Assembly (NCBI GenBank): GCA_036785375.1
Contig: JAWMAR010000392.1
Coordinates: 1,116,001-1,180,000 of the forward strand
Length of the DNA stretch: 64,000 nucleotides
Direction of reading: 5' to 3'
From: Leucoraja ocellata
Taxonomy: Eukaryota
Part shown: piece after piece, positions 15,082-15,507 of the stretch
Position numbering within the stretch: position 1 is the first letter of the stretch
How the letters are laid out: every line of letters begins with the position of its first letter
Position numbers and translations under genes: made by a program
The notes under the pieces: generated by a model
What the model was told of the DNA's origin: nothing
What the model saw: only the letters and a program-made list of their open reading frames with translations
The model's database searches: none

Positions 15082-15507
15082 CCTCGGGAAGCAGCGTCTC
15101 CGTGAGCGTCCGTAACAGAGAAGTGAACGGAATCGTCAACCGCTCGGCCCTTCTCGCCAGCTGCTACTCACACCCCTGCTCTCAGCTAACATTGGAGTGG
15201 CATTTTCAACCCAGCACAACTCCGCTTGTGAGACTGATCCGATCAAACTGCTCTCAGTTTGCGAGTCTGAGCCGATCAGACTGCCCTCTCCACCTAGCCC
15301 GACCCGGTTGTAACTGCTCAGATCGCTGCGTGATCAGTCCATCCTACACGGGGCGAGTCCAACTCTACCCCGTGAATGGGTCCCTGTTACTGCGGGATTT
15401 ACGGCGCAGTGACAGCGGAGTGTACGAGATATCGGTTTACAGCGGCGGAAACAGCAGAGTGAAAGACACCGTGACATTAACGGTATACAATCACCACACA
15501 GAGACAG
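15082..15507 (+). CDS. Ig V-set domain exon, HEPACAM/CD2/CEACAM-like, with Cys-rich insert
   Basis: Acceptor tcttgcag|CC, donor ACAG|gtagga, phase 1-1, 426 nt open. Motifs VNGIVNRSALL, LTLEW, YTGRVQLYPVNGSLLLRDLRRSDSGVYEISV, TVTLTV. Confidence 0.85.

Follow-up and report, generated by a model that had tools for sequence, protein, structure and literature searches.

A skate V-set exon with a predicted, duplication-lengthened C'-C'' hairpin, in a likely activating member of an uncharacterised, likely paired-receptor family

We analysed a 64-kb window (the whole stretch of DNA under study) that contains an open immunoglobulin V-set exon, fragments of related exons and candidate leader and membrane exons. 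The features, all on the forward strand, are as follows.

6788..6866, forward: coding part of the leader (signal-peptide-like) exon; 26 codons and one further base, with an ATG context and a phase-1 donor (G followed by GTAAGT)
13487..13555, forward: paralogous V exon fragment, C-C' part, ending after one duplication unit; 88% nucleotide identity over 68
15082..15507, forward: V-set Ig exon without the B-F disulfide; 7 cysteines and 4 N-glycosylation sequons
15225..15257, forward: duplication unit 1, C' strand; Cys56 at 15249-51
15258..15290, forward: duplication unit 2; Cys67 at 15282-84; present in contigs of runs X1 and X2
15309..15329, forward: Cys76 (in skates and one stingray), Cys78 (family-invariant partner) and Cys82 (Trp in both RefSeq skate proteins)
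15508..15596, forward: open read-through into the intron, 29 codons plus stop; the C terminus in the Amblyraja RefSeq model
16037..16165, forward: paralogous V exon fragment, E-G strands, with a stop inside and its 5' part replaced by a repeat; 84% over 133 nt
17268..17291, forward: remnant of a V exon start, 24 nt; 23/24 nt identical
18863..18955, forward: degenerate piece of a V exon covering strands A'-C, immediately following an assembly gap; 75% over 93 nt
about 20048..20260, forward: exon 3, encoding a stalk, a transmembrane segment that has an Arg close to its start, and a short tail free of tyrosine motifs; four 1-base insertions

Apart from these, the long frames of the window belong to 7TM receptors and repeats. 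The receptor genes are of the rhodopsin family, single-frame and 318 codons long, and lie at 32113-33069, 42432-43388 and 52286-53242, with a fourth copy from 63871; they are 96-99% identical and stand in tandem in ~10-kb segmental repeats that are 98% identical.

The V exon spans 426 nt, is of phase 1-1 and is open through 141 full codons, with an AG acceptor (15080-81) preceded by a pyrimidine tract and a GTAGGA donor at 15508. Its F strand reads DSGVYEISV, and the canonical B position likewise carries no cysteine. The seven cysteines are residues 27, 32, 56, 67, 76, 78 and 82, five of which lie between the C-strand Trp and the D strand. Splice sites, frame and F strand thus confirm the original prediction of a clean phase 1-1 Ig exon with seven cysteines and no YxC. 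The Pfam V-set profile, which that prediction had named as a check, scored the domain just above its cut-off (27 bits against 26), and the top rows of a fold search were V domains at Z 14-16. Among solved structures, the best sequence matches were CEACAM N domains, CD2 and CD48, each covering the D-G half only. The proposed assignment to a V domain with a disulfide-less core of the CEACAM/CD2/HEPACAM type is supported. The domain is 75-79% identical to proteins from Amblyraja, Leucoraja and Rhinoraja, a similarity that marks the window as rajid skate DNA.

One of these, Leucoraja XP_055521960, matches the window in three places: the leader, the V exon and the stalk-membrane-tail exon. The resulting three-exon structure follows this one automatic gene model. 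The leader shares 24 of its 26 residues with the N terminus of the Leucoraja protein, is of the Leucoraja rather than the Rhinoraja/Amblyraja type, and by its sequence would be spliced in frame to 15082 with Ala as the junction codon. It replaced an early top candidate, a hydrophobic stretch at 12690-12762, because it matches the modelled leader and has a canonical donor. Exon 3 surfaced only with the Leucoraja protein as query, the first five homologues having given none; read with X at its breaks, it is identical to the Leucoraja C terminus at 56/69 residues and keeps the membrane Arg (LRAWVLG). Its acceptor is uncertain, the candidates being an AG at 20058-59, which is in frame, and a damaged site near 20047. 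A further "membrane-like" match, at 5933-5965, comes from the end of a LINE read on the reverse strand.

Assembly gaps flank exon 3, at 18730-18862 on one side and 24009-24415 on the other. Between them, four young repeat copies carry 22 small indels in 1691 nt (13 per kb; 6-17 per kb by copy), mostly insertions, against 15 in 8789 nt (1.7 per kb) for 22 copies, segmental duplicates among them, elsewhere in the window. At the local error rate, the chance of four insertions in 211 nt is P = 0.30; at the background rate it is P = 0.0005. Since repeat copies of the same stretch share the error pattern, the exon 3 insertions are probably assembly noise, and likely consensus errors. The consensus between the two gaps, 18863-24008, is of low quality, so broken frames there are untrustworthy.

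Taken at face value, the breaks would make this a recent pseudogene in this species, with exon 3 truly frameshifted and the V exon a still-open relic of a birth-and-death cluster, a reading that would leave the family interpretation unaffected and that we consider unlikely. The doubtful acceptor speaks for it alongside the four insertions, as do the four degenerate V fragments around the exon, a pattern as in a decaying locus, and RNA run X24, which put no read on the V exon among 12.9 million (5% of the run, from a related organism, tissue not given). A search of public runs for the exon named no RNA run among those listed with more than a small share. Yet neither the leader nor the V exon is damaged, and both have canonical splice sites; X1 and X2 keep the duplication-bearing stretch in frame; and every break is a single-base insertion between the two gaps, just where the four repeat copies show their excess of indels.

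Downstream of the V exon, the frame stays open into the intron, and over junction and tail 31/33 residues are identical to Amblyraja XP_032903439 (LOC116990023), whose model ends by this read-through without a membrane segment. Two ATTAAA hexamers, weak poly(A) signals, lie at 15545 and 15592. A secreted decoy composed of leader, V domain and the 29-residue tail, soaking up the ligand of an inhibitory receptor, would take just this form, which RefSeq models for LOC116990023 with a near-identical tail. We regard it as distinctly improbable: 4.5 kb downstream there is a homologous membrane exon, which the Leucoraja model includes; the Amblyraja model could represent one half of a split gene; and skate intron DNA is similar enough (0-2 differences in 68-69 in X2 intron contigs) for a read-through to be conserved without selection.

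The 33-nt codon-phased tandem duplication described in the original prediction is real. Its two units agree at 25/33 nt in the register given there and at 26/33 with starts at 15219-15224; TRF returns a period of 33 with 1.9 copies at 83%, and 0/300 codon shuffles of the V exon reached 25/33 at any in-frame period of 24-45 nt. We compared the exon to four runs, X1, X2, X4 and the RNA run X24. Ungapped contigs cross both units in X1 (227 nt, 3 differences) and X2 (205 nt, 7 differences), and X2 holds an additional, more divergent 117-nt piece spanning both; in X4 no piece bridged the two. Two more X1 contigs miss a net 33 nt, so paralogues with and without the duplication coexist. The extra 11-residue unit also occurs in Amblyraja XP_032903439 and Leucoraja XP_055521960. 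Hence, with contigs of two runs across both units and two skate RefSeq proteins carrying the extra unit, the duplication is not an assembly artefact. The two units resemble each other at 7 of 11 residues in Amblyraja, 5 in Leucoraja and 4 in the window.

The runs also differ from the window elsewhere in the exon. At 15171-15173 all three DNA-like runs encode Thr where the window has His31, with three adjacent letters differing, possibly through a compensating indel pair in the assembly. Near the exon end, at 15499-15502, X1 and X4 carry an in-frame 9-nt insertion. Four isolated differences between the window and the X2 contig all change amino acids, a number too small to judge selection.

Homologue searches returned 5, 97 and 161 matches (the best 120 of the 161 listed), nearly all "uncharacterized"; automatic names read HEPACAM-like or CEACAM-like. 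The listed matches come from sharks, rays, skates, birds and turtles, with frog and newt members from an additional search; they include LOC116990023/25, LOC129716097, LOC122541371 and chicken LOC771657. In mammals, the sole match listed in the 97-match search was a distant PSG (E 3e-10). Teleosts were absent among the named rows of the best 120 of 161 in a word-based search, most matches of the frog-yielding search being unnamed. The family is not described in the literature searched, a corpus that mostly omits subscription papers and bioRxiv supplements.

To characterise the family, we collected 163 distinct full domains scoring at least 60 bits on its profile. The segment from the C-strand Trp to the NGSL motif measures 48 residues in 125/163 of them and 59 in exactly three, the duplication-bearing skate domains; two ordinary relatives have 31-32 residues by manual count. 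Within this segment, the Cys-x10-Cys pair at V positions 56 and 78 is invariant in 36/36 sequences, and a pair about 10 residues apart occurs in 132/163 domains by pattern, or 145 after 13 missed by the pattern anchor were checked by eye. The 18 domains without the pair are 17 frog or frog-like ones, in which the length is kept, and one truncated shark model. A cysteine follows DxGxY in 1/163 domains. The window domain combines the disulfide-less core, the long segment and Cys-x10-Cys, and it nests in the family tree, with support of 97/89 for the rajid clade.

These lengths change the reading of the insert. The original prediction described a Cys-rich insert of about 30 residues, grown by duplication. 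Five cysteines are there and the duplication is genuine, yet the latter supplies only 11 residues; the remainder, including two cysteines, is family-wide, so the insert is not private to this exon. By sequence comparison, the extra 11 residues are skate-specific. The original prediction had allowed that the exon might be the plain orthologue of a known gene whose members all carry the insert: most of the insert is indeed common to the relatives, which are uncharacterised and represent no known gene.

Several members have unusual architectures. Frog proteins P0100, P0102, P0117, P0127 and P0138 carry tandem V domains that keep the long hairpin segment and have mostly lost the Cys pair, the membrane-bearing ones being of the Arg type. 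Among duck and chicken proteins (P0099, P0034, P0045), up to six tandem V copies occur in one duck protein, and chicken LOC771657 has two V copies and many isoforms. Amblyraja XP_032903439 and XP_032903440 (P0023, P0002) are consecutive models, the first with leader and duplicated V and no membrane segment, the second with a reverse-transcriptase N terminus, a plain V, a membrane segment and tyrosine motifs; annotation may have divided a single inhibitory gene with two V domains into these two. The gull member, from Rissa tridactyla (P0098), is filed as a TMLHE isoform, so the bird family locus probably abuts TMLHE. Chicken and Xenopus members lie on records of 90.9 and 147.2 Mb, presumably chicken chromosome 4 and Xenopus chromosome 8, which hints that the family locus is human-X-homologous.

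AlphaFold models predict that the long segment protrudes from the V domain. In a non-duplicated Rhinoraja protein, strands 81-92 and 99-107 are joined by a six-residue turn (pLDDT 94-97), and Cys90 would sit opposite Cys101, the register being taken from the strand ends. In the window domain, the strands are 47-63 and 73-84, with a low-confidence tip at 61-70 (pLDDT 55). The feature is thus predicted to be a beta-hairpin at the C'-C'' (CDR2) position, about 5 residues longer per strand after the duplication. Of the disulfide-stabilised protruding loop put forward in the original prediction, the long protrusion is what AlphaFold predicts, and stapling by a disulfide is probable. Cys56-Cys78 would be the family disulfide; it fits the hairpin register, with the qualification that the alignment itself placed the family cysteine on Cys56. 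Cys76 occurs in non-duplicated skate and stingray domains and is therefore older than the duplication, so the new cysteine raises the hairpin's conserved cysteines from three to four. Cys67 could then pair with the batoid Cys76 and close a small loop at the hairpin tip. Foldseek against the PDB and a viral library gave generic V-set matches at 8-24% identity and listed no solved structure with the same hairpin, and the ESM Atlas returned generic V-set clusters only.

Most shark members have the hairpin Cys pair only. Ray members P0008, P0010, P0014 and P0020 have gained cysteines in the loops BC and FG, with as many as 7 in one domain, which at sequence level suggests CDR1-CDR3-type bonds.

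We next compared the membrane segments and tails of family members, which fall into two types. All 17 long-tail proteins scored have YxxL/I/V motifs, which we take to be ITIM- and ITSM-like, and none has an Arg where the membrane segment begins; five further proteins were left unscored for tail type. All 9 shark, ray and frog short-tail proteins scored have an Arg within the first 7 membrane residues and no YxxL/I/V. In birds, the Arg falls just outside the membrane window in 6/7 short-tail proteins and is missing from the seventh, so these members may not be activating. The Leucoraja membrane segment matched the Scyliorhinus short-tail protein (0/500 shuffles as high) and the Hemiscyllium one (4/500); the Leucoraja tail failed to exceed its shuffles against the three remaining short-tail proteins of the five compared (279, 423 and 68 of 500) and against both of the long-tail controls scored.

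In a tree of 55 rows, which omits 2 labelled outgroups without a domain match, V domains of the two tail types are sisters in 9/9 species with both, with starred support in 8; the species were chosen as having both tail forms, and locus names are distinct in 6/9, so the other pairs could be isoforms. Within these pairs, V identity is 87-99% and post-V identity 21-35%. Across species, post-V regions of the same type reach 61-90% identity in birds and bamboo sharks; a comparison of catshark with bamboo shark gives 42-45%. The four skate V domains form one clade, whose inner order the tree leaves open. Homogenised ligand domains with differing tails are the pattern described for paired receptors (PMC3210942, in the portion available). 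Because V domains are sisters within species while tails diverge, and two tail types bear near-identical ligand domains in all nine pairs, these are likely paired receptors.

Two other readings of the gene bear on this point. The family might be one of homophilic or heterophilic adhesion molecules like HEPACAM or CEACAM1, with the hairpin as a self-adhesion surface in a possibly Cys-linked dimer. The CEACAM, CD2 and CD48 structural matches and the HEPACAM-like and CEACAM-like automatic names lean that way; IgC domains are absent, and two opposed tail types with homogenised V domains would be unexpected for a plain adhesion gene. The dimerisation that the original prediction had drawn from the odd cysteine count loses its footing, since that count is not conserved: the duplication-bearing Amblyraja domain has 6 cysteines, with Cys82 replaced by Trp in both RefSeq skate proteins. 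A homodimer prediction for two V copies, in which the alignment was not used, scored 0.21 against a mark of 0.32 and speaks neither for nor against a dimer. We think an adhesion role very unlikely.

Nor do we give much weight to the idea that a multi-V or inhibitory receptor contains the duplication-bearing V among its domains, with its remaining exons lying in assembly gaps, which we consider highly improbable. Tandem-V members do exist in rays, ducks, chicken and frogs, three assembly gaps lie downstream of the V exon, and the accessions of two Amblyraja models follow one another: LOC116990023, with leader and V but lacking a membrane segment, and LOC116990025, with V, membrane segment and tyrosine motifs but lacking a true leader. 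Against this, tblastn and HMM searches with homologues found no ITIM-type membrane or tail exon in the 64-kb window, and the leader is of the Leucoraja type, not that of Rhinoraja or Amblyraja.

Our preferred reading, which we hold with slightly more than even confidence, is that the V exon encodes the single V domain of a three-exon skate gene, likely the activating member of an uncharacterised, likely paired-receptor family, whose ligand-facing hairpin was lengthened by an 11-residue duplication. Leader, V domain and stalk-transmembrane-short tail would then form an activating membrane receptor, whose Arg would recruit an ITAM adaptor of the CD3-zeta/FcR-gamma type, while the tyrosine motifs of the inhibitory partner would recruit SHP-type phosphatases. 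The lengthened hairpin would be presented as a binding surface for a ligand common to the inhibitory paralogue. Both receptors would face one fast-changing ligand, most likely a microbial protein that takes advantage of the inhibitory receptor, and for that reason gene conversion may keep their V exons alike.

According to the available text of PMC13107469, CD89, NKp30 and NKp46 associate with FcR-gamma or zeta dimers through an Arg near the top of the membrane helix. FcR-gamma was not found in sharks by one survey (PMC4016189, as excerpted), but cd247 is expressed in the bamboo shark (PMC11372145, as excerpted), making zeta a candidate adaptor. In the part of Supplementary Data 2 of PMC11372145 available, the HSC cluster has among its markers the bamboo-shark long-tail member LOC122541371, detected in 26.8% against 5% of cells (adjusted p 4.6e-51). 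This is the only expression evidence that we found, and it concerns a relative of the window gene.

A broader scenario, which we offer tentatively and with rather less than even confidence, is that the paired system is as old as jawed vertebrates, having been kept by sharks, frogs, turtles and birds, chicken and duck among the latter, and not seen in mammals or teleosts; that it binds its ligand through a germline stalk-and-knob CDR2 hairpin to which the skate duplication supplied a second disulfide; and that rays keep adding cysteines to three tip loops under a pathogen arms race.

The duplication by itself is a modest lineage-specific detail; the more interesting finding is the unnamed, ancient, likely paired receptor family. 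The interpretation in the original prediction is partly supported; it missed the other exons and the paired-receptor context, and most of the insert proved to be shared by relatives. Paired receptors with homogenised ligand domains usually mark surfaces exploited by pathogens. If the paired family is true, it would fill a gap in what is known of innate immunity in sharks, amphibians, turtles and poultry, its members being entered in databases under the wrong labels HEPACAM-like or CEACAM-like or left uncharacterised, and chicken LOC771657 would make it directly testable. For a V domain, a germline binding surface made of a disulfide-stapled C'-C'' hairpin would be out of the ordinary, and the skate duplication would be a natural experiment in the growth of such a protrusion.

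How does this family relate to known systems? The top row of the structural search was amphioxus VCBP3 V1 (PDB 1xt5; Z 16.3, rmsd 2.2, 122 aligned), tied with the next rows and, at 16% identity, showing no kinship. The extra disulfides of shark VNAR and the bovine ultralong CDR3 knob are protruding beta-ribbons with added cysteines at the tip of a V domain. The likeness to them drawn in the original prediction holds only loosely, because the skate loop lies at C'-C'' (CDR2), not CDR3, within a single, complete germline A-G exon that undergoes no rearrangement.

HEPACAM, HEPACAM2, VSTM5 and CD2/SLAM proteins have an A'-B motif of the VNGTVGQSVLLP type, a disulfide-less V domain and TxYxxI/V-like motifs; HEPACAM, HEPACAM2 and CD2/SLAM follow the V with C2 domain(s). 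The hairpin family shares the VNGTVGQSVLLP-type motif and the disulfide-less V, with TxYxxI/V-like motifs in bird and turtle tails, but it has no C2 domain, has the extra hairpin and paired tails, and in the proteins compared runs from V directly to stalk and membrane segment.

The ectodomains of CD89, NKp30, NKp46, PIR and KLRI are unrelated to the hairpin family, being C2, lectin, or V domains with the canonical disulfide. The likeness to FcalphaRI/CD89, NKp30 and NKp46 (PMC13107469, in part) and to the PIR-A/B and KLRI pairs (PMC3210942, in part) lies in the Arg near the helix top, the short tail and an inhibitory counterpart. Skate MDIR and the CD300 and TREM receptors are likewise multigene activating and inhibitory V receptors, known from skate; in the excerpt of PMC3031540, skate MDIRs are CD300-like and keep the canonical disulfide, a V of that type being defined by two Cys pairs, one of them B-F, together with WCR in strand C. 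The window V domain has neither the B-F pair nor WCR.

CEACAM1/CEACAM3 pairs of mammals, Xenopus and reptiles come close, on the available parts of PMC5112662 and PMC13278318: their V (N) domain lacks the B-F disulfide and gives the best PDB matches, their inhibitory member has two tail tyrosine motifs, and their ligand domains are homogenised within species. The hairpin family differs in having, among the proteins compared, V domains only, without IgC, in a much longer C'-C'' with its own Cys pair, and in a short-tail member with a membrane Arg in place of the ITAM that activating CEACAMs bear, and no tyrosine motifs. Xenopus ceacams map to chromosome 7, between lipe and bcl3 (PMC5112662, in part), and a little-skate CEACAM has been reported, in the portion of PMC3628338 available, with no detail tying it to the hairpin family. 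Chicken and duck have no complete CEACAM genes according to the available text of PMC13278318, but both have intact hairpin-family members, which argues against a CEACAM identity.
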